From assembly GCA_947632375.1 (NCBI GenBank), contig CANRPF010000006.1:1-52965 (forward strand): a DNA stretch of 52,965 nt, written 5' to 3'. Of the stretch, positions 1 through 7,171 are shown in pieces. Source of the stretch: an uncultured Bacilli bacterium. Its GTDB lineage: Bacteria > Bacillota_I > Bacilli_A > RF39 > UBA660. Positions within the stretch are counted from its first letter, which is position 1. Each line of letters begins with the position of its first letter. The position numbers were made by a program, and so were the translations under genes. Below the pieces are notes generated by a model that was not told the origin of the DNA, ran no database searches, and worked only from the letters and a program-made list of their open reading frames with translations.

Positions 1-1781
1 CCCACAGAGGACGGCGGGTCAGAGATGCCAGAACAAAATACTCCAGCAAAAGTGGATCGTCCCCAATCCCCACCAAAATTACCATAACACACAGCGCTGT
101 TATTAAACCAAAATCCGTCCGCCTCGTATGTAGATGATGTACCATACCCCTTAACTGGCACTCTCCCCCAAGGCGTTACCTTCATTGTGCTTATATAACT
201 TGCTGTTACTGCCGACTGCCCAGAAGGTGTCGATTCTTGTAATGTGATATAACCGGTTCCGTCAAGGTTATAGCCAGATGTAGAACTTCCATCATGAGTC
301 CCCCATGTCAGTTTGACTTTCTGGGTACCGTGATAATCAATCCATCCGGCTGTCCGTCGCCACAGATTACCCCATGGGTTCTCCATGCCGAAGACCTTGA
401 CGCCAGATACTTGGTCATTGCTCCCCCAGAATAGCCCTTTCTTATCCATCGTCCCTTGGCCAATAGCACCATTATTTCCTGTGCGACAGTATCCTGCACC
501 ATATTTGATTTGAGTATTGGTAGACTTAGCCATCAAAACCAAAAGATCCTGAACCAAGAATTTATCAGCAACTACTTCTATGTAGTACCCATCACCATTA
601 GCCTTTGCTAAATTGATTTGTGCTGTTGTATCAGTATTCACGTAATTTGTCCTCCCGGAAATAGTCCGTAGCCTTGTCCCATCCGACGAACCAAAATATA
701 TAGGTGTGTAAAAGTGATCTATTTGGTTATCATCCTGGTCATAGTTGCACCAGCAATCAAAACCATCCAGACCTATATCACAACACCTGAATTTATATGT
801 ATCTTCCGTTTCCTCGCGGCTCGTGAAAATCTTGCCCCATTGCATCATAGCATTGCCTGCGAAATTTATATCTGCCACGCTGGAAGACTGCCCATCTATC
901 TTTTTGGTGTAGTCATTTGGATCTAGCTCTTCCATAACTACACCCGCATAAGATACCATCGTCGGTTTAGGCATAAACTTTTCGCCTGGTGCAAAATCCC
1001 AGCCCCCGTAAACAAATTTACCTCCGGCAAAATCCATATAGGCAGGCGCAAAATCAGTATTATCTACACCTGTAGGATAGGACACCCTGGCATCAGGGTC
1101 GGGCTCAGAGGAGATTAAATCAAATCCGTAATAATACTCAGATTTTAGTTCAATTTCTTCTCCCTTTTCAGATATATTAACTGTTTTTCCACCTATATCC
1201 CATTCACCAACATCATCTAATTCAAGATAAGCACTTAAATCTTCTCCAATAGTAACTTGAACATTTTTACTACCTTTTTTAGCTGTTATTGTTTTACCAA
1301 TAACCTCAGATGCTTTAAATGTTATTACTATTTTAGCATTATCATTTGGTGTTACACTAGCTCTATACGACTTATCCCTATTATAAACATCATGGTCTGA
1401 ATAGGAATAAGCCGCATAGTAATATGTTATATCATTTTTACAAATATCTTCATAAGCTGTAGTTTTATATTTACTAAAATCTTCTCTAGGAAGATTCAAA
1501 GCTACAACTGCTTCGTTATCATTTTCATTTATTGGATAACTACCCTCTTTTCTCAAAAGTAGCACCCCAGCAGCTCGACAGAGTTCTTGACCATCAATAA
1601 CAGTATCATTAGGGCCTTCAATATAAATTCTATTCTTACCATTTGAAGGAGTAACCCTAAATAACTTAGGTGGTAAAGGCGGAATTCCAACCTCATTTCC
1701 TCCATTACCTCCGGTTCCCGCGTTTTTAATTAGCTTGCCAACTTCATCTATCGTATACTGCGCAGCTACAAAATCACTCAT
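1..1781 (-). CDS. Tail fibre / receptor-binding protein (partial; the stop codon lies beyond the window start)
   Basis: Uninterrupted minus-strand frame from the ATG at 1781-1779 to the window edge, about 590 codons. The ATG overlaps the TGA of the upstream gene. Gly/Ser/Thr/Asn/Tyr/Trp-rich composition typical of fibre proteins. Last gene of a minus-strand operon with a repeat-containing fibre-like protein. Absent from the ORF track only because no stop is reached inside the window. Confidence 0.55.
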   Translation of the reverse strand, partial: MSDFVAAQYTIDEVGKLIKNAGTGGNGGNEVGIPPLPPKLFRVTPSNGKNRIYIEGPNDTVIDGQELCRAAGVLLLRKEGSYPINENDNEAVVALNLPREDFSKYKTTAYEDICKNDITYYYAAYSYSDHDVYNRDKSYRASVTPNDNAKIVITFKASEVIGKTITAKKGSKNVQVTIGEDLSAYLELDDVGEWDIGGKTVNISEKGEEIELKSEYYYGFDLISSEPDPDARVSYPTGVDNTDFAPAYMDFAGGKFVYGGWDFAPGEKFMPKPTMVSYAGVVMEELDPNDYTKKIDGQSSSVADINFAGNAMMQWGKIFTSREETEDTYKFRCCDIGLDGFDCWCNYDQDDNQIDHFYTPIYFGSSDGTRLRTISGRTNYVNTDTTAQINLAKANGDGYYIEVVADKFLVQDLLVLMAKSTNTQIKYGAGYCRTGNNGAIGQGTMDKKGLFWGSNDQVSGVKVFGMENPWGNLWRRTAGWIDYHGTQKVKLTWGTHDGSSTSGYNLDGTGYITLQESTPSGQSAVTASYISTMKVTPWGRVPVKGYGTSSTYEADGFWFNNSAVCYGNFGGDWGRSTFAGVFCSGISDPPSSV

Positions 1782-2214
1782 GTTCTATCTCATATGCCTC
1801 CGTTATTTTCTTATTACCAGACTCGTCTTGTGGTTCTATCGTAGTAGTTTTAACGTAGGTAACACCGTTACCATTTTTATGTTGTATTCTCTCTGTAATT
1901 ATTTCTGCACCTTCTACATCTAAGGTCATTTGCTTTGTTGTTGTCACAATAGCATCTTCTGTTTCAGTCACAATAGTTCCATCCTCTTGGAAAGTTGTAA
2001 CTTGATTTACTAAACCATAACGTTTTTGAAAGTTTATTTCTTCTTGCTCTTGCATATAGGTCTGCATAGCCTTATTTTGTTCGTCTAAATATTCTTTCAA
2101 CGTTTGATTTTTTGTACCTTCTGCACTACTATATTTATAATAAATAGCTGCTACGTGAGAAATAGCAAAACCTTTGACACCATTTAATTTCAACCATAAC
2201 TTATTTGTTGCCAT
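1774..2214 (-). CDS. Hypothetical virion or tail-associated protein
   Basis: 146 aa ORF translationally coupled to the fibre gene (ATGA overlap). Lies in the minus-strand tail-fibre operon. Confidence 0.45.
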   Translation of the reverse strand: MATNKLWLKLNGVKGFAISHVAAIYYKYSSAEGTKNQTLKEYLDEQNKAMQTYMQEQEEINFQKRYGLVNQVTTFQEDGTIVTETEDAIVTTTKQMTLDVEGAEIITERIQHKNGNGVTYVKTTTIEPQDESGNKKITEAYEIEHE

Positions 2215-2221
2215 TTATTAC

Positions 2222-2701
2222 TCACGCCCCGTCCTCAGTTACTGTAGTTTTTATAATAAGAGTTGGTTCTTCAACAGTAATAGATAGCGCGTCAATTTTA
2301 GCTTTTGTATCATTTACTTTTTTAGCAAATTCTTCAGCTAACTTTTCTTCAGTTACAGCACCATCTTTTATCTTTTCAGTTGTAACTGAATCATTAGCTA
2401 GCTCATTCTCGCCAACTTCGCCATCTTTTATTTTATCTCCAGTAATTGCATCATTTTGTATCTTGCTTTCAGTTACCGAATTTTCTGCTAACCTACTTTC
2501 AGTGACTGCACTATCTTTTATTTTACTTTCAGTTATAGAATCTTCAGCTAACTTTTCTTCAGTTACAGCACCATCTTTTATCTTTTCAGTTGTAACTGAA
2601 TCATTAGCTAACTTTTGTGTGGTTACTGCCTCATCTTTCAACTCTCTAGTTCCAACTGAATTAGGGCCAAGAGGAATAACACTTCCGTAAAAACTTGCCA
2701 T
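2222..2701 (-). CDS. Tail-fibre-like protein with hendecapeptide tandem repeats (SVTTEKIKDGAVTEEKLAEDS-type)
   Basis: 159 aa with about eight 11-residue repeats (xAVTxxKIKDGxVTxxKLAxxS), as seen in N-terminal stalks of phage fibre proteins. The DNA shows a 33-nt periodicity plus a 70-bp exact duplication. The plus-strand ORF 2205-2690 is its shadow. Confidence 0.5.
   Translation of the reverse strand: MASFYGSVIPLGPNSVGTRELKDEAVTTQKLANDSVTTEKIKDGAVTEEKLAEDSITESKIKDSAVTESRLAENSVTESKIQNDAITGDKIKDGEVGENELANDSVTTEKIKDGAVTEEKLAEEFAKKVNDTKAKIDALSITVEEPTLIIKTTVTEDGA
2351..2610. repeat. 70-bp exact direct repeat (2351-2420 and 2541-2610) embedded in a 33-nt periodic tandem repeat array
   Basis: tcttcagctaacttttcttcagttacagcaccatcttttatcttttcagttgtaactgaatcattagcta occurs twice. 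Encodes the duplicated ANDSVTTEKIKDGAVTEEKLAE block of the fibre-like protein (minus strand). Confidence 0.8.
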
Positions 2702-2715
2702 TTTATTATATCTCC

Positions 2716-2994
2716 TTAATATACAAAGTCAACAATGGCTTTCGTTGTCTCCTTAAACTTTAAACTTGTTATAGGAACAATACAATCTAATTCATAAACA
2801 CCAGTCTTACCTATTGTAATTTCTTGGTCATTTAATATTATTACCGTTCCTTCAGGAGCTTGAATGCCAATTTTTAGTAAAGTAGGTCTTTCACTGTCGT
2901 ATTTCTTAGTTTTTTCCCTAATTTCATTATCTAACAAGTCTTTGTCTTTGTCAAAAGAACCAGATACCTGTCCAACACGTCCATTCAAAATCAT
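2716..2994 (-). CDS. Hypothetical protein, first gene of the minus-strand fibre operon
   Basis: 92 aa ORF immediately downstream (minus sense) of the divergent promoter region 2995-3121. Confidence 0.4.
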   Translation of the reverse strand: MILNGRVGQVSGSFDKDKDLLDNEIREKTKKYDSERPTLLKIGIQAPEGTVIILNDQEITIGKTGVYELDCIVPITSLKFKETTKAIVDFVY

Positions 2995-3067
2995 ATTACC
3001 GTACCTCCTATATGTAATATAAAAATTTTAGCAATCTATTTGAATAGTTCTGTCCTATTGATGTAAA

Positions 3068-3096
3068 TTGATTTTTAATAAAAATTTTGATATAAT
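3068..3096 (+). promoter_or_regulatory. Sigma-A-like promoter TTGATT-17-TGaTATAAT (drives the phosphatase operon); divergent from the minus-strand fibre operon
   Basis: -35 at 3068-3073, extended -10 at 3088-3096, RBS aaggt before ATG 3122. Confidence 0.6.
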
Positions 3097-3121
3097 ATAC
3101 TTATAGAAAGAAGGTATAAAT

Positions 3122-3871
3122 ATGAATAAGCATTATTGTTGCACAGATTTACATGGAATGTTAGACCTTTGGTTACAAATTGCTAGATATTGTGATAAAA
3201 CAGATACAATTTACTTTCTAGGCGATGCAATAGATAGAGGTAAAGATGGTATGGCTGTTATGAAAAATCTTCTTCTTGACTCAAGAGTGATATATCTAAA
3301 AGGTAATCATGAAGATTTAATGGCAGATGCGGTTGCCGAGGTGTTAGGCGCTAGTTACCTTGATATATTTCATACATGGATGTACAATGGAGCGCAGGAT
3401 ACCTGGAAAGATTTATCACAATATGCAGATGGTAGTAAAGAATGGTTTATGAATAAAATACTAGCCATGCCAGACAATGAAGTATATATCAATCCTAAAG
3501 GACAACATATCTTTCTTTCTCATGCTGGAACCGCACTTGACTACGAACCATATGAGTTATTATACGCGGAAAAGGAAGGTAATAGATACCTATGGGATAG
3601 ATTTCATATTAACAAACCGTGGCCAAAGGATAAAAAATATAAAGATTGGTATGTCGTACATGGACACTCTCCAGTCCAATATGTTACTAGAAGATATGAT
3701 TTACCTTTACAATTAGACGAAGAAATGAGACCTTTAATAATTGAATATGCAAATGGTCACAAATTTGACCTAGATTTAGGTTCATTTGATTCAAAGGTTG
3801 TTGCATTATTTGACCTAGATGAATTAAAAGTTACTAAATATTTTTATATGAAGGACGATGTTGATGAATAA
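3122..3871 (+). CDS. Ser/Thr protein phosphatase-like metallophosphoesterase (PPP / lambda-PPase family)
   Basis: Motifs DLHG, GDAIDRG and GNHE in canonical order and spacing. RBS aaggt upstream. Confidence 0.75.
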   Translation: MNKHYCCTDLHGMLDLWLQIARYCDKTDTIYFLGDAIDRGKDGMAVMKNLLLDSRVIYLKGNHEDLMADAVAEVLGASYLDIFHTWMYNGAQDTWKDLSQYADGSKEWFMNKILAMPDNEVYINPKGQHIFLSHAGTALDYEPYELLYAEKEGNRYLWDRFHINKPWPKDKKYKDWYVVHGHSPVQYVTRRYDLPLQLDEEMRPLIIEYANGHKFDLDLGSFDSKVVALFDLDELKVTKYFYMKDDVDE

Positions 3872-4904
3872 GAAAGAAATTTTAGATAGATTACAAGAAC
3901 ATTATGAATATGCTATTCAATGTGGTTATGATGAAGAACATATCCTAGGTGTATTCTTGTATGGTAGTCAAAATTATGGAACTGCTAATGCAGATTCAGA
4001 TATTGATAGTAAGTTAATTTTGCTACCTTCATTTGAACAATTATGTTTAAGTCCAGAAATGGTATCAAAAGAACTACATTATAAAGATGAACATATTGAG
4101 GTTAAAGATATTCGATTAATGCGGCAAATGTGGATGAAACAAAATATTAACTTCATTGAAATTCTATTTACTGAATATTATATTTTAAATCCAAAATATG
4201 AAAAGTTATTTAATCAATATTTTGTAGAGAATAGAGAAACTATTGCACATTTTGATAGAAATAAAACTTTAGTTAGTATTTCTTCTCAGCTATTAAATAC
4301 CTTAGACCAAGGTATGGGTGACAATAAAAAACTATATAATTCATGGAGATTATATTACTTCCTAGAAAAATATATTGCTGGAGAACCTTATGAAAAATGC
4401 TTAAAACCAATAGGAAAAGAACTTGCTTTCTTAATGTCTCTTAGAAATAATGCTAATGATATGTGCTTTGATAAAGAAAAAGCAGTTGTTAGTGGATACG
4501 ACTTGAAATATAAAACACGGAAGCTCGTTGAAGACAACAATAACCTAGACTCACCTGAACATGAAGCGGCGACCGCGGTTTTAAATCAGGGAGTAATTGA
4601 AATTTTAAAGCAATCATTTGTAGAAGATTTATCACAATCTACCATGTCTAAAGCAGACTTTATGAAACAACTCACCAATGCTGAAGAACGTGCTTACTAT
4701 TCTATTGTAAAGAACATTGGGGCTGAAGGTAATATTACTATTAGCAAGCTCGTGGAACAAAATAGCATCAGCCGCCCCGTATATAATAACTTAATTAACA
4801 AAATGAAAGAACATAATATTGCAAAAGTTTCTAATCAAGGAGTTAAAGGAACTTACATTAAAATCACTCAGCCTGAATTGAAAGCAGAAGCTATTGATTT
4901 TTAA
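3858..4904 (+). CDS. Pol-beta-superfamily nucleotidyltransferase with C-terminal winged-helix domain
   Basis: N-terminal motif YGSQNYGTANADSDIDS, a GS-x3-GT-x4-SD[IV]D nucleotidyltransferase signature. Helical middle region and C-terminal HTH-like segment. Confidence 0.55.
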   Translation: MLMNKKEILDRLQEHYEYAIQCGYDEEHILGVFLYGSQNYGTANADSDIDSKLILLPSFEQLCLSPEMVSKELHYKDEHIEVKDIRLMRQMWMKQNINFIEILFTEYYILNPKYEKLFNQYFVENRETIAHFDRNKTLVSISSQLLNTLDQGMGDNKKLYNSWRLYYFLEKYIAGEPYEKCLKPIGKELAFLMSLRNNANDMCFDKEKAVVSGYDLKYKTRKLVEDNNNLDSPEHEAATAVLNQGVIEILKQSFVEDLSQSTMSKADFMKQLTNAEERAYYSIVKNIGAEGNITISKLVEQNSISRPVYNNLINKMKEHNIAKVSNQGVKGTYIKITQPELKAEAIDF

Positions 4905-4922
4905 TAAAAATTATTATATAAT
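4895..4922 (+). promoter_or_regulatory. Promoter TTGATT-16-TATAAT upstream of the flotillin gene
   Basis: Hexamers at 4895-4900 and 4917-4922. Confidence 0.5.
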
Positions 4923-4966
4923 TATTATATGAACAATGAAAATTAAATAAAAGGAGAAAAATTATT

Positions 4967-6514
4967 ATGGTAGAACAGATTTTGAAGCCTATCATCCCTA
5001 TTGTCTCAATTATCCTCATGATTGTAATTATTGCTGCACTTATTATTGTAGTAGCAAAAACAATGTATCGTAAGGTTCCGCCTAATCAGGCTATGATTGT
5101 AACTGGCGGTCCAGGTGGAAGTAAGACAGTAGTTGGACGAGGATGTTTCATTATTCCTATCTTGCAGCGTGTAGACTTCCTATCTCTTGAAAATATTCAG
5201 TCAGACTTTACATCAAGAGATGAAATTCCCACTAAAGATGCTATTAACGTGTTAGTAGATGCTGTTGCCAACGTATCAGTCTCCAAAGACCCAGAAGTAA
5301 TGAAGATTGCGGCTTCCAAATTCGTTGGATATAAGCCAGATAAGATTCGTGAAATTATTACTCCTGTGCTAGAAGGCAACATTCGTGAAATTATTTCTCA
5401 GACAACTTTGAAAGAGTTGATTCAGGGAGATAAAAAGATGTTTGCTGAGAAGGTTATTGATAATGTAACTCCAAACCTTCGTGATATGGGTCTTGAGTTG
5501 ACTACATTCAATATCCAGAACTTCAAGGATAAGAATGGTGTTATTGATAACCTAGGTCTTGAAAACACAGTGCAGATTAGTAAGGATGCCGCAATCTCTA
5601 AGGCTAACGCAGAAAAAGAAATCGCGGTGGCCCAGGCTGAAGCTGCACAGACCGCGAATGAGGCAAAAGTAAAGGCTGACACTGAAATTGCCAAGAAGCA
5701 GAATGAGTTAGCCATTCAGAAAGCTGAGTTGAAGAAATCTGCTGATACTAAGAAAGCTGAGGCGGATGCCGCATACAAGATTCAGGAAGAGGAACAGCGT
5801 AAGTCTATCGAAATTGCTGAGGCTAATGCTAATCTGGCTCGACAGGAAAAGGAAATCGAGTTGAAAGAGCGTGAAGTTGCTATCAAAGAGAGAACTTTGG
5901 AAGCAACTGTTAAGAAGGAAGCAGAGGCTCAGAAGTATGCTGCACAGCAAGTCGCCGATGCAAAGTTGTATACAACTCAGAAACAGTCTGAAGCTGACCT
6001 ATTTGAGCGCGCTAAGAAGGCTGAAGCTGAACAAATTGAAGCCGAGAGACATGCTGAAGCTACTAAGGTTGAGGCAGAAGCAAGACGAATTGCCGCTGAG
6101 CATGAGGCCGCAGGTATTAAGGCTAAGGGTGAAGCTGAGGCTTCTGCTATTCAGGCAAAAGCTGTTGCTGAGGCTGAAGGTATCTTGAAGAAAGCTGAAG
6201 CTATGAAGCAGTATGGCGACGCCGCTAGAGAAAATATGCAGTTGGAAGCTATTAAAGTATTCTTCCAGCAGTTGCCTGCAATCGCCAATGCCGCTCGTCA
6301 GGCATATACCAACGTCGATAAGATTTATATGTATGGTGGGGAAAGTTCTAAACTCACAGAAGATGTCACTAAAAATATTGTCCAGTTATCTGAAGGGCTA
6401 TCCAATAGCATGGGTATCGACTTGAAGGGTCTTCTTTCAGGCGTGCTTGGAGCCAAGCTGGTCGGTGGAAAAGATGTCACTGTTAATGTTGAACCAGCAG
6501 GTTCAGAGTATTAA
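4967..6514 (+). CDS. Flotillin-like SPFH / band-7 protein (FloT/YqiK family)
   Basis: N-terminal transmembrane helix, SPFH core (NQAMIVTGGPGG...), then a long Ala/Glu/Lys-rich coiled-coil 'flotillin' domain. Own promoter, strong RBS aaggag, own terminator. Codon usage is less AT-skewed than neighbouring genes. Confidence 0.8.
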   Translation: MVEQILKPIIPIVSIILMIVIIAALIIVVAKTMYRKVPPNQAMIVTGGPGGSKTVVGRGCFIIPILQRVDFLSLENIQSDFTSRDEIPTKDAINVLVDAVANVSVSKDPEVMKIAASKFVGYKPDKIREIITPVLEGNIREIISQTTLKELIQGDKKMFAEKVIDNVTPNLRDMGLELTTFNIQNFKDKNGVIDNLGLENTVQISKDAAISKANAEKEIAVAQAEAAQTANEAKVKADTEIAKKQNELAIQKAELKKSADTKKAEADAAYKIQEEEQRKSIEIAEANANLARQEKEIELKEREVAIKERTLEATVKKEAEAQKYAAQQVADAKLYTTQKQSEADLFERAKKAEAEQIEAERHAEATKVEAEARRIAAEHEAAGIKAKGEAEASAIQAKAVAEAEGILKKAEAMKQYGDAARENMQLEAIKVFFQQLPAIANAARQAYTNVDKIYMYGGESSKLTEDVTKNIVQLSEGLSNSMGIDLKGLLSGVLGAKLVGGKDVTVNVEPAGSEY

Positions 6515-6518
6515 GATG

Positions 6519-6552
6519 AAAGGCTGAGTTAAATACTCAGCCTTTATTTTTA
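6519..6552 (+). terminator. Intrinsic terminator after the flotillin gene
   Basis: aggctgagt / actcagcct stem, 5-nt loop, T-tract. Confidence 0.7.
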
Positions 6553-6571
6553 TTAAAATTTATGATATAAT
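6543..6571 (+). promoter_or_regulatory. Repeated-family promoter (tttatt-17-TGaTATAAT)
   Basis: Member of the recurring motif TTATTAAAATTTATGATATAATAT directly after terminator 6519-6552. Confidence 0.5.
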
Positions 6572-6602
6572 ATTTATATAAGAAATAAGAAGGTGATTTG
6601 AA

Positions 6603-6740
6603 ATGAAGAAAATATTGGCAACTATTATTATTATATGCGGGCTGGTAGTCACAGGCGCCTTAGTTCTCAATATACCGCTACAGTCAAGGAGATACATAGG
6701 TTACACAGTCGCGGGTCCCGCAAATGCAGAAAGGAAATAA
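6603..6740 (+). CDS. Small membrane protein (45 aa)
   Basis: RBS gaaggtg; hydrophobic N-terminus (MKKILATIIIICGLVVTGALVL). Sits directly downstream of the flotillin gene. Confidence 0.3.
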   Translation: MKKILATIIIICGLVVTGALVLNIPLQSRRYIGYTVAGPANAERK

Positions 6741-6741
6741 A

Positions 6742-6939
6742 ATGTTAAAAGAGGTTAAAGTAACAGTAAAATATCCATTTCCGCAAATTGATTCACAAGA
6801 TTTTTACACTTATGTTCCAGAAGAAGAATTGAATGATCTTGATTCTGCTGTAACATGTGATGTTATAGATTTTTTATTAGAGGAAATTTCTTTTTCTTGT
6901 GAACTTACTGGTGAAGAAATGGAGGATGAAGAAGATTAA
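6742..6939 (+). CDS. Small highly acidic protein (65 aa)
   Basis: ATG 6742 preceded by aaaggaaa. C-terminal half is EELNDLDSAVTCDVIDFLLEEISFSCELTGEEMEDEED. Confidence 0.35.
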   Translation: MLKEVKVTVKYPFPQIDSQDFYTYVPEEELNDLDSAVTCDVIDFLLEEISFSCELTGEEMEDEED

Positions 6940-7107
6940 ATGCAAAGAGTAATTTTTGTTAAAAAAGATGATATTTATGAATTAAATAAGCGTTTAGCTG
7001 ATGGGTGGAGAGTGCAACAGATTTATCCAATTACAGCCCATCCTTGTGGGACCTCTTATGATAGTGGTTTCTATGGCGCATATATTGTAATTGAAATGTG
7101 TAGTTAA
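6940..7107 (+). CDS. Hypothetical small protein (55 aa)
   Basis: ATG immediately follows the TAA of the upstream ORF. Below the ORF-track size cutoff. Confidence 0.3.
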   Translation: MQRVIFVKKDDIYELNKRLADGWRVQQIYPITAHPCGTSYDSGFYGAYIVIEMCS

Positions 7108-7136
7108 TTGATTTTAAATAAAATTTATGTTATAAT
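7108..7136 (+). promoter_or_regulatory. Promoter TTGATT-17-TGtTATAAT for the MVP-homologue gene
   Basis: -35 at 7108-7113, -10 at 7131-7136, RBS aggaga at 7155-7160. Confidence 0.6.
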
Positions 7137-7171
7137 ATTTATGAAAATAATTAAAGGAGAATTTGTGTTAT

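Follow-up and report, generated by a model that had tools for sequence, protein, structure and literature searches.

A flotillin gene cassette in a large phage genome

The stretch analysed here, 52,965 nucleotides of contig CANRPF010000006.1 (hereafter the window), comes from a large phage of the virulent type; its GC content is 32%, and it carries a gene for a flotillin of the FloT/YqiK type. Here, we compared the protein, its transcription unit and its viral and bacterial relatives, together with an MVP (major vault protein) homologue encoded downstream. The gene had been noticed before from the letters of the sequence alone (the original prediction), at exactly this position on the forward strand, with an ATG start and a length of 515 aa. 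All the parts described then, namely the anchor, the SPFH/band-7 core and the EA-rich coiled coil of the FloT/YqiK family, were recovered by hydropathy, the Pfam Band_7 profile, composition and the FloT profile.

The Band_7 profile (PF01145) matched residues 36-217 above its curated cut-off (E 2.4e-22, 80.3 vs 23.6 bits, profile positions 2-176 of 176), and residues ~2-33 were strongly hydrophobic (Kyte-Doolittle 19-residue maximum 3.5), predicting a membrane anchor. The Pfam Flot profile (PF15975), which is present in most flotillin homologues of at least 69% identity, aligned to residues 390-456 with 24.7 bits, slightly under its cut-off of 27. Despite this sub-threshold score, a long A/E-rich coiled coil corresponding to the Flot region was found by the FloT alignment, by the predicted helices and by the composition of residues 218-420 (A 26%, E 18%, K 14%; A+E+K 58%). 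The NCBIfam FloT profile (NF058507) covered residues 15-493 (profile 4-475 of 477, E 1.8e-75), but the score of 254.8 bits did not reach the equivalog cut-off of 700 bits for B. subtilis FloT, indicating a family member rather than the equivalog of that protein. Human flotillin-1/2 chains in the PDB matched by sequence over residues 36-343 (E ~4e-48, ending at 333-343). In an AlphaFold model that was built from a shallow alignment and used for secondary structure only, a helix at 2-33 was followed by an alpha/beta domain at 41-180 and by helices at 202-360 and 369-448; the best Foldseek matches were flotillin complex chains (9l3g, 9bq2), ahead of prohibitin, HflK/C, QmcA-YbbJ and stomatin. Because the profiles, the human flotillin matches, the secondary structure and the Foldseek matches agree, the gene is, on sequence grounds, a genuine FloT/YqiK-type flotillin gene of the SPFH superfamily. 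Its product very probably forms a membrane-attached SPFH cage, since it is homologous to the solved human flotillin complexes and these are also its top fold matches.

The flotillin gene lies in a cassette that is wholly absent from the nearest relative of the window, Logan contig L212, which is syntenic, ~78-83% identical in DNA and 88% identical in MVP. L212 retains the metallophosphatase, the nucleotidyltransferase, the 45-aa peptide p45, a frameshifted-looking copy of the 55-aa p55 and MVP, and tblastn found no flotillin across its 19 readable kb. By blastn, window positions 2951-4928 aligned with L212 4529-6513 and window 6595-6751 with L212 6480-6629, and in L212 a single nucleotide separates the stop codon of the nucleotidyltransferase from the start codon of p45. 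These alignments and the 1-nt junction indicate that 4905-6602, which spans the flotillin gene with its promoter and terminator as well as the promoter after it, is missing in L212. The p55 homologue there (L212 6634-6777) shows an apparent 1-nt deletion near its 5′ end compared with the window, and no gene is called in the assembly at L212 6486-6851; the deletion may be an assembly error or may mark a decaying open reading frame (ORF).

Flotillin and MVP had been credited with their own strong promoters and terminators and with a similarly GC-shifted codon usage. Putative signals of both kinds are present at each gene, indicating separate transcription units. However, the window contains 14 exact TTGAYW-N17-TATAAT sites, all on the forward strand, so this is a general host-type phage promoter and is ruled out as a hallmark of the two genes. 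The codon shift is strong in flotillin, whose GC at third positions (GC3) of 0.372 is the highest of any sizeable gene in the window (gene mean 0.20, sd 0.06), but just mild in MVP (0.265). The overall GC of the flotillin gene (42.6%) lies between that of the phage and that of Blautia loci carrying related genes (~44%).

A module made up of a terminator hairpin, a T-run and a consensus promoter is repeated between gene cassettes of the window (6519-6585, 9739-9795, 12515-12585 and 15539-15570); the copy behind flotillin shares 91% identity with L212 13776-13842, at a different position. Recombination at such repeats could shuffle the cassettes, and T4-like phages have a resembling arrangement in their promoter-stem-loop repeats.

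The original prediction had seen p45, the peptide following flotillin, in the place of an NfeD partner. The peptide is indeed hydrophobic, but its only homologue among the fetched loci is that of L212 (62% identity), directly after the nucleotidyltransferase, and its presence there without flotillin rules it out as a replacement for NfeD. Homologues of p55 are likewise confined to L212, the acidic 71-aa p71 has none among the fetched loci, and Pfam gave no match for any of the three peptides. The neighbours of phage flotillins differ by clade, and none of those profiled is NfeD. Beside the closest bacterial flotillins no NfeD was seen either, some of these neighbour clusters having been judged by eye without profiles. 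We conclude that there is no NfeD-like partner, and that none is expected in this flotillin lineage.

In another group of phages, clade C, the gene after flotillin in all of about 26 loci encodes a 244-aa protein that combines an N-terminal membrane helix with a long coiled coil (L042 11476-12210). It had no Pfam match, and the idea that it is PspA-like was dropped; it is a possible clade-specific flotillin partner. Immediately upstream of flotillin, other loci carry NAD synthase (clade C; L042 8830-9600) or a DUF2828/DUF7788/VWA protein (L008 8371-9870), gene types linked elsewhere to countering NAD-depleting defences and to RNA-binding Ro-like systems.

The rightward gene arm that contains these features begins ~3.0 kb into the window (Table 1). 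The forward strand of the window codes for RNA ligase, PhoH, endolysin, topoisomerase II subunits, a DnaB-like helicase, RecJ, a Dda-like helicase, NrdD and a DNA polymerase of 1294 aa. We found no tRNA genes in the window, no Rfam match in window 1-12000 and no megablast match of window 4000-10000 to INPHARED phages.

Table 1. Features of the flotillin-MVP region and their positions in the window
Feature	Position	Strand	Basis or remark
NinI-like metallophosphatase	3122-3871		upstream of flotillin
Pol-beta-type nucleotidyltransferase	3858-4904		upstream of flotillin
Promoter-like TTGATT-17-TATAAT (sigma-70/SigA-type)	4894-4922	+	upstream of flotillin
Flotillin cassette (promoter, ribosome-binding site, coding sequence, terminator, downstream promoter-like site)	4905-6602	+	wholly absent from L212
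Shine-Dalgarno-like AAAGGAGA	4950-4957	+	read from sequence; end 9 nt before ATG
Flotillin (FloT/YqiK-type) coding sequence	4967-6514	+	515 aa, ATG start
N-terminal hydrophobic membrane anchor, residues ~2-33	4970-5065	+	Kyte-Doolittle; predicted helix 2-33
SPFH/Band_7 domain, residues 36-217	5072-5617	+	Pfam PF01145
A/E/K-rich long helical (coiled-coil) region, residues 218-420	5618-6226	+	composition, predicted helices
C-terminal tail, residues 421-515	6227-6511
Intrinsic-terminator-like hairpin (11 bp stem) and T-run	6519-6555	+	3′ of flotillin
Promoter-like site, extended -10 (TGATATAAT), weak -35	6543-6571	+	upstream of p45; read from sequence
p45, hydrophobic 45-aa peptide ORF	6603-6740	+	Kyte-Doolittle 2.85; not a flotillin partner
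p71, acidic 71-aa ORF	6724-6939	+	window-specific; absent from L212
p55, 55-aa ORF	6940-7107	+	common to L212, tblastn 75% identity
Promoter-like TTGATT-17-TATAAT with TG	7108-7136	+	upstream of MVP
MVP homologue, 854 aa	7172-9736	+	own transcription unit; 88% identical to P0121
Terminator-like hairpin and T-run	9739-9764	+	3′ of MVP

Relationship to bacterial flotillins

We scanned species-representative genomes, one per species, with a query alignment of 21 diverse phage flotillins and obtained more than 586 relatives. Among the best 80, five are phage contigs binned into metagenome-assembled genomes (MAGs; L140, L142, L143, L182 and L210), and the others lie without phage genes. The closest non-phage homologues (L132-L136 and L139) share 67-73% identity with the window protein and are chromosomal genes of Bacterium 1XD42-54 and of MAGs assigned to Blautia and Lachnospiraceae. 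In Bacterium 1XD42-54, which is an isolate, the gene lies on a 717-kb scaffold beside tRNAs, an MFS transporter, a cupin and an alcohol dehydrogenase; the Blautia and Lachnospiraceae MAG genes adjoin an ABC permease, a GlcNAc 2-epimerase and a rhamnosidase, with no phage genes.

The identity to these genes varies along the protein. The SPFH domain (36-217) is 85-86% identical to the Blautia flotillins and 81-83% to the flotillins of the sister phages L001 and L002, the coiled coil (218-420) 75-82% and 83%, and the C-terminal tail (421-515) 51-56% and 72-75%, respectively. The SPFH domain is thus nearer to Blautia and the tail nearer to the sister phages, a mosaic that suggests within-gene recombination or domain-specific constraint.

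In a neighbour-joining tree of 99 flotillin sequences with 200 bootstraps, phage and bacterial flotillins interleave, and monophyly of the phage sequences was recovered in 0 of the 200 bootstraps. The window groups with L001 and L002 at 99%, and phage L042 with Erysipelotrichales at 84%. Phage L030 (IMGVR_UViG_3300045988_126982, 10001-11473) carries a flotillin ~86% like chromosomal Lachnospiraceae genes, at the site (c18-c19) where clade C phages hold a much more divergent copy, which looks like a separate, recent capture or replacement. Together, the interleaved tree and L030 indicate that flotillin moved between phages and hosts more than once.

The gene is also kept by selection, as indicated by a dN/dS of 0.11-0.12 between phage copies with dS above 1 (0.11 against L001; the comparisons of the window with L002 and with Blautia give no dN/dS, their dS being saturated). 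Many alignment columns are invariant across the 21 diverse phage flotillins.

Flotillin and the major vault protein homologue

The original prediction had paired the flotillin with an MVP homologue lying two genes downstream. The MVP homologue itself is real: profiles and alignment show the shoulder, the vault repeat and the cap helix of a true MVP (MVP_shoulder E 3.2e-20; Vault_3 31.1 bits vs a cut-off of 28.8), and rat/human MVP in the PDB is colinear with it (457-811 to 456-801, E 7e-12). However, three small ORFs intervene, so that MVP is the fourth ORF downstream of flotillin. The MVP shoulder is accepted as SPFH-like and homologous to SPFH (PMC13347060), as had been stated; hhalign found no profile-profile similarity between the flotillin and MVP family profiles (probability 5%).

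In pattern scans of IMG/VR, flotillin relatives of 44-81% identity occurred on at least 80 viral contigs, mostly of 100-200 kb, and MVP relatives on 51 contigs. MVP lay within 10 kb of flotillin in 7 of the 80 flotillin loci, and the reciprocal count was 15 of the 51 MVP loci; both are underestimates, because the MVP of several clades is located 9-13 kb upstream of flotillin, just beyond the flank. The gene order in several clades is MVP, ~8 kb of other genes, metallophosphatase, AAA_33 kinase, Metallophos_2 protein and flotillin. For a wider count, we used a metallophosphatase-anchored scan, a diverse MVP-alignment scan (137 matches) and a strict DNA-motif scan (HHAIAIPxGEGRY, 108 matches), and merged the loci by sequence overlap and contig name. 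Flotillin was present in 117 of the 203 groups of viral loci considered. At least 40 groups held both genes on one contig, always on the same strand, and within the available flanks 77 held flotillin only and 55 MVP only, both of these classes being upper bounds since the scans give the best 80 loci with 10-kb flanks.

Where both genes occur, their arrangement varies. From mid-gene to mid-gene, MVP lies at +2.4 to +6.2, -4.6 to -5.3 or -8.8 to -13.7 kb from flotillin; the spacing ranges from 0.4 kb to ~13 kb, and both gene orders occur. In L213, unrelated genes for a DUF7192 protein and an AAA_5 ATPase lie between them. By name, 117 distinct contigs carry MVP (from at most 137 matches), and just 12 of the 80 listed flotillin contigs are among them, leaving at least 48 of the 80 without an MVP bearing the conserved motifs. 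No MVP list includes a member of clade B (L014-L027) or clade C (L042-L078, ~160-kb contigs), which are the largest two flotillin clades. No flotillin match was found in the MVP-bearing megaphage records LR756500, LR756501 and LR756503 (462-735 kb), and no MVP match in the flotillin-bearing records of Vibrio phage KIT04, csAssE-Sib and MT835492.

In the metallophosphatase-anchored sample, 24 loci held both genes, 21 flotillin only, 10 MVP only and 25 neither, a positive association with an odds ratio of 2.9 (p = 0.04, uncorrected for phylogeny); several of the flotillin-only loci carry MVP farther along the same contig. An RNA-ligase-anchored scan gave 10 loci, too few for a co-occurrence table. 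The check that had been proposed for the pair therefore found linkage, but a partial one: distance and order vary, many flotillin contigs are without MVP, and L212 has MVP without flotillin. In our reading, one phage family often houses both genes in its hyperplastic early region, and each is gained and lost independently of the other; an obligate flotillin-MVP pair is excluded.

The two genes also differ in their mode of evolution, since MVP is the more conserved among phages (mean column identity 67% vs 52% for flotillin) and flotillin has been exchanged with bacteria. The 120 best MVP relatives all lie on contigs of at most ~151 kb. In addition, we identified MVP homologues in unannotated megaphage records of uncultured phages (LR756500.1, 20928-23372; LR756501.1; LR756503.1, 17368-19599), with 37-39% identity and more than 90% coverage, which indicates that phage MVPs extend well past the ~140-kb gut phage family.

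Possible roles in the infected cell

On balance, and by a modest margin over its being wrong, we favour the explanation that the window carries a host-derived, selected auxiliary flotillin cassette, whose product builds or joins flotillin domes in the membrane of the infected cell without depending on MVP. In this scheme, a full-length flotillin would be exchanged between large phages (~100-200 kb) of gut and rumen and the Firmicutes that serve as their hosts, and the phage would carry it as a self-contained cassette in its early-gene arm, which is variable. Host RNA polymerase would transcribe it from the consensus promoter soon after infection, the N-terminal helix would insert the protein into the cytoplasmic membrane, and the long A/E-rich helices would drive oligomerisation into SPFH domes. 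These domes may be pure or mixed with host flotillin, mixing being possible because the assembly regions are 75-86% identical. The organisation or fluidity of membrane microdomains would thereby be sustained or re-shaped during takeover, to the benefit of the phage, and flotillin would act independently of the MVP gene and without an NfeD-type partner. Membrane fluidity and scaffold roles have been described for FloA and FloT of B. subtilis (PMC7360373, PMC3892786), and dome structures for flotillin and other SPFH complexes (PMC11260169, PMC13000311, PMC12624060). Candidate benefits are membrane integrity and energy supply, lysis timing, and protection from membrane-acting defences; the last is made attractive by the recurring RNA-repair and counter-defence-type genes, by association only.

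Several points weigh against this explanation. The structural model has a mean pLDDT of 62, a low confidence at which the fold search gives little beyond sequence homology, and the promoters and terminators were called by consensus match only. The joining of the window clade with the Blautia clade has a low bootstrap of 58%; transfer from host to phage and from phage to host both fit, as do loss of the cassette in L212 and its gain in the window. Flotillin identity hints at a Blautia-type lineage as the probable host, which is an indirect identification. Finally, the flotillin-only and MVP-only classes are upper bounds, and the positive association in the anchored sample is compatible with a functional link between the two genes.

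The raised GC3 and the presence/absence polymorphism against L212 might also be expected of a neutral passenger, that is, recently acquired host DNA with no role in the phage. We consider this barely credible given the dN/dS of ~0.11 with dS above 1 between phage copies, the retention of the gene, at 44-81% identity, in more than 100 separate groups of phage loci, the phage-type promoter and terminator that it has to itself, and the recurrence of the captures. Among functional alternatives, a counter-defence or membrane-protecting role, in which flotillin would stabilise the membrane or sequester membrane proteins and so blunt membrane-targeting abortive-infection effectors or premature lysis, is compatible with the auxiliary-cassette explanation; a counter-measure to defence had also been raised in the original prediction. 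The flotillin islands across clades hold PARG, a Thg1-like enzyme, RNA ligase, AAA_33 kinase with metallophosphatase, HD, NAD synthase and PhoH, the flotillin of Vibrio phage KIT04 lies 1.4 kb from an RNA ligase, and in B. subtilis DynA, a host protein that remodels membranes and is genetically linked to flotillin, alters how phage infection ends (PMC8844932). Such evidence is guilt by association, however, and the island is simply the hyperplastic early region of the phage. The PADLOC-DB 2.0 defence models gave no match to flotillin or MVP at E <= 0.001, and in the literature we found no paper on phage flotillin function or on a link of flotillin to phage defence or anti-defence; as it stands, we rate this role as unlikely, if the most plausible of the alternatives. 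The phage protein might instead act as a dominant modifier, rather than a supplement, that co-assembles with host flotillin and alters dome closure or the binding of clients such as FtsH-type proteases. The SPFH domain and coiled coil are close to those of Blautia (85-86% and 75-82%), the last 95 residues have diverged from them (51-56%, compared with 72-75% in the sister phages), and SPFH cages enclose FtsH in the HflK/C structures found among the fold matches (9cz2, 7vhq). Yet the tail is the least conserved part among bacteria too, and we give this proposal a small chance.

A similarly small chance is left to joint action of flotillin and MVP, in which a flotillin dome would dock or nucleate an MVP half-vault in a membrane-associated compartment during infection, as the original prediction had proposed in outline. 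The genes share strand and contig, 0.4-13.7 kb apart, in 40 groups spanning several flotillin clades; they are adjacent in L001 (~0.4 kb gap) and close in L091, L113 and L121, and the odds ratio, the distant MVP genes of some flotillin-only loci and the homology of the MVP shoulder to SPFH point the same way. But L212 combines MVP (88%) and conserved flanks with no flotillin from -6.8 to +10 kb, and the MVP groups L081, L082, L120 and L124, with metallophosphatase/nucleotidyltransferase neighbours, are also without it. The contigs and clades without a motif-bearing MVP, the megaphages with MVP only, the phages with flotillin only (KIT04, csAssE-Sib, MT835492), the separate transcription units with unrelated genes between them, the differing histories and the lack of profile-profile similarity argue in the same direction. 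In a narrower form, large gut and rumen phages would have captured host flotillin repeatedly into one early-gene region, a sizeable subset keeping it a few kilobases from a phage-specific MVP. That in these phages an MVP shell would dock or nucleate on the membrane-anchored flotillin dome, and so make a phage-built membrane-associated compartment, seems slimmer still.

The auxiliary-cassette explanation has parallels among known systems. Cyanophage psbA and the lambdoid morons are host-derived auxiliary genes with their own promoter and terminator; like them, the flotillin cassette is a host-like, self-contained unit that is present or absent between relatives and under purifying selection, but it encodes a membrane scaffold rather than a metabolic enzyme or toxin. 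The Blautia and Lachnospiraceae flotillins share with the window protein its length, order of parts and 67-73% identity, and are likewise standalone genes without an NfeD neighbour. The window gene differs from them in being encoded by a lytic-type large phage, with a phage-wide consensus promoter, its own terminator, a GC content intermediate between phage and host and a diverged C-terminal region of 95 residues (51-56%). The 44-mer dome of human flotillin-1 and flotillin-2 (9bq2, 9l3g; PMC11260169, PMC13000311) is homologous over residues 36-343 and gives the top fold matches; the human proteins, however, attach by a hairpin and acylation and form a hetero-oligomer, whereas the phage protein has a single predicted N-terminal helix.

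Phage flotillins have been annotated before. Band_7 ORFs were noted in 2006 in the T4-like phages 44RR, Aeh1 and RB43 (PMC1524935), Xanthomonas phage X1 is a later example of an SPFH gene (PMC13384950), and the authors who described the SPFH lipoprotein of phage GIB1 write that why it is there "remains unclear" (PMC13239085). Both the T4-like proteins and that of GIB1 are SPFH lipoproteins of short length, in contrast to the full-length flotillin of the window, which is near that of the probable host itself; the match to PHROG 200 is weak (E 4.5e-10). Some of the present homologues were already named "flotillin" by JGI, and csAssE-Sib has a flotillin/SPFH annotation as well. The cultured T5-like Vibrio phage KIT04 (Demerecviridae; L488, LC487410.1 27313-28734) is annotated with a 473-aa flotillin family protein, which also lies near an RNA ligase but is just 26% identical over 54% of the query. 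A set of phage MVPs from gut Caudoviricetes, to which the MVP of the window belongs, was reported not long ago (Santos et al., bioRxiv 10.1101/2023.11.10.566534, 2023); that preprint mentions flotillin 0 times, and compared with it we find the co-location of flotillin and MVP to be partial and not obligatory. What appears to be new is the closeness to a Blautia flotillin, the recurrent exchange with hosts and the partial, non-obligate linkage to phage MVP.

The role of bacterial flotillins is still debated. Repeated uptake of flotillin under purifying selection would imply that manipulating membrane microdomains pays in infection, and the window and L212, as near-isogenic natural variants with and without the cassette, make this tractable; KIT04 offers a cultured, tractable system for the function of phage flotillins. 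The 85% identity of the SPFH domain to Blautia hints at the host of an uncultured phage group, and the non-obligate neighbourhood of flotillin and MVP matters for inferring the function of phage vaults from gene context.

Other genes of the window drew our attention as well. MVP is followed by HD (10008-10460), PARG (10899-11681) and a Thg1-like enzyme (11665-12504), and farther downstream by Metallophos (12606-13454), RNA ligase (13470-14714) and a kinase and phosphatase (~16606-17650), the Pfam assignments of several genes in 10008-17650 being taken from the syntenic loci L212 and L213. This run of RNA-repair and ADP-ribose-removal genes is likely a counter-defence island, serving tRNA repair after anticodon nuclease attack and reversal of ADP-ribosylation. 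At the opposite end, a minus-strand ORF extends past the window start; its 3′ part occupies window 1-1783, and it is at least 594 aa long. Its GC content is ~45% against 32% for the window, and in relatives this place is taken by large minus-strand genes that adjoin an XkdX-like gene. A tail-fibre or receptor-binding protein of atypical composition is its probable product.

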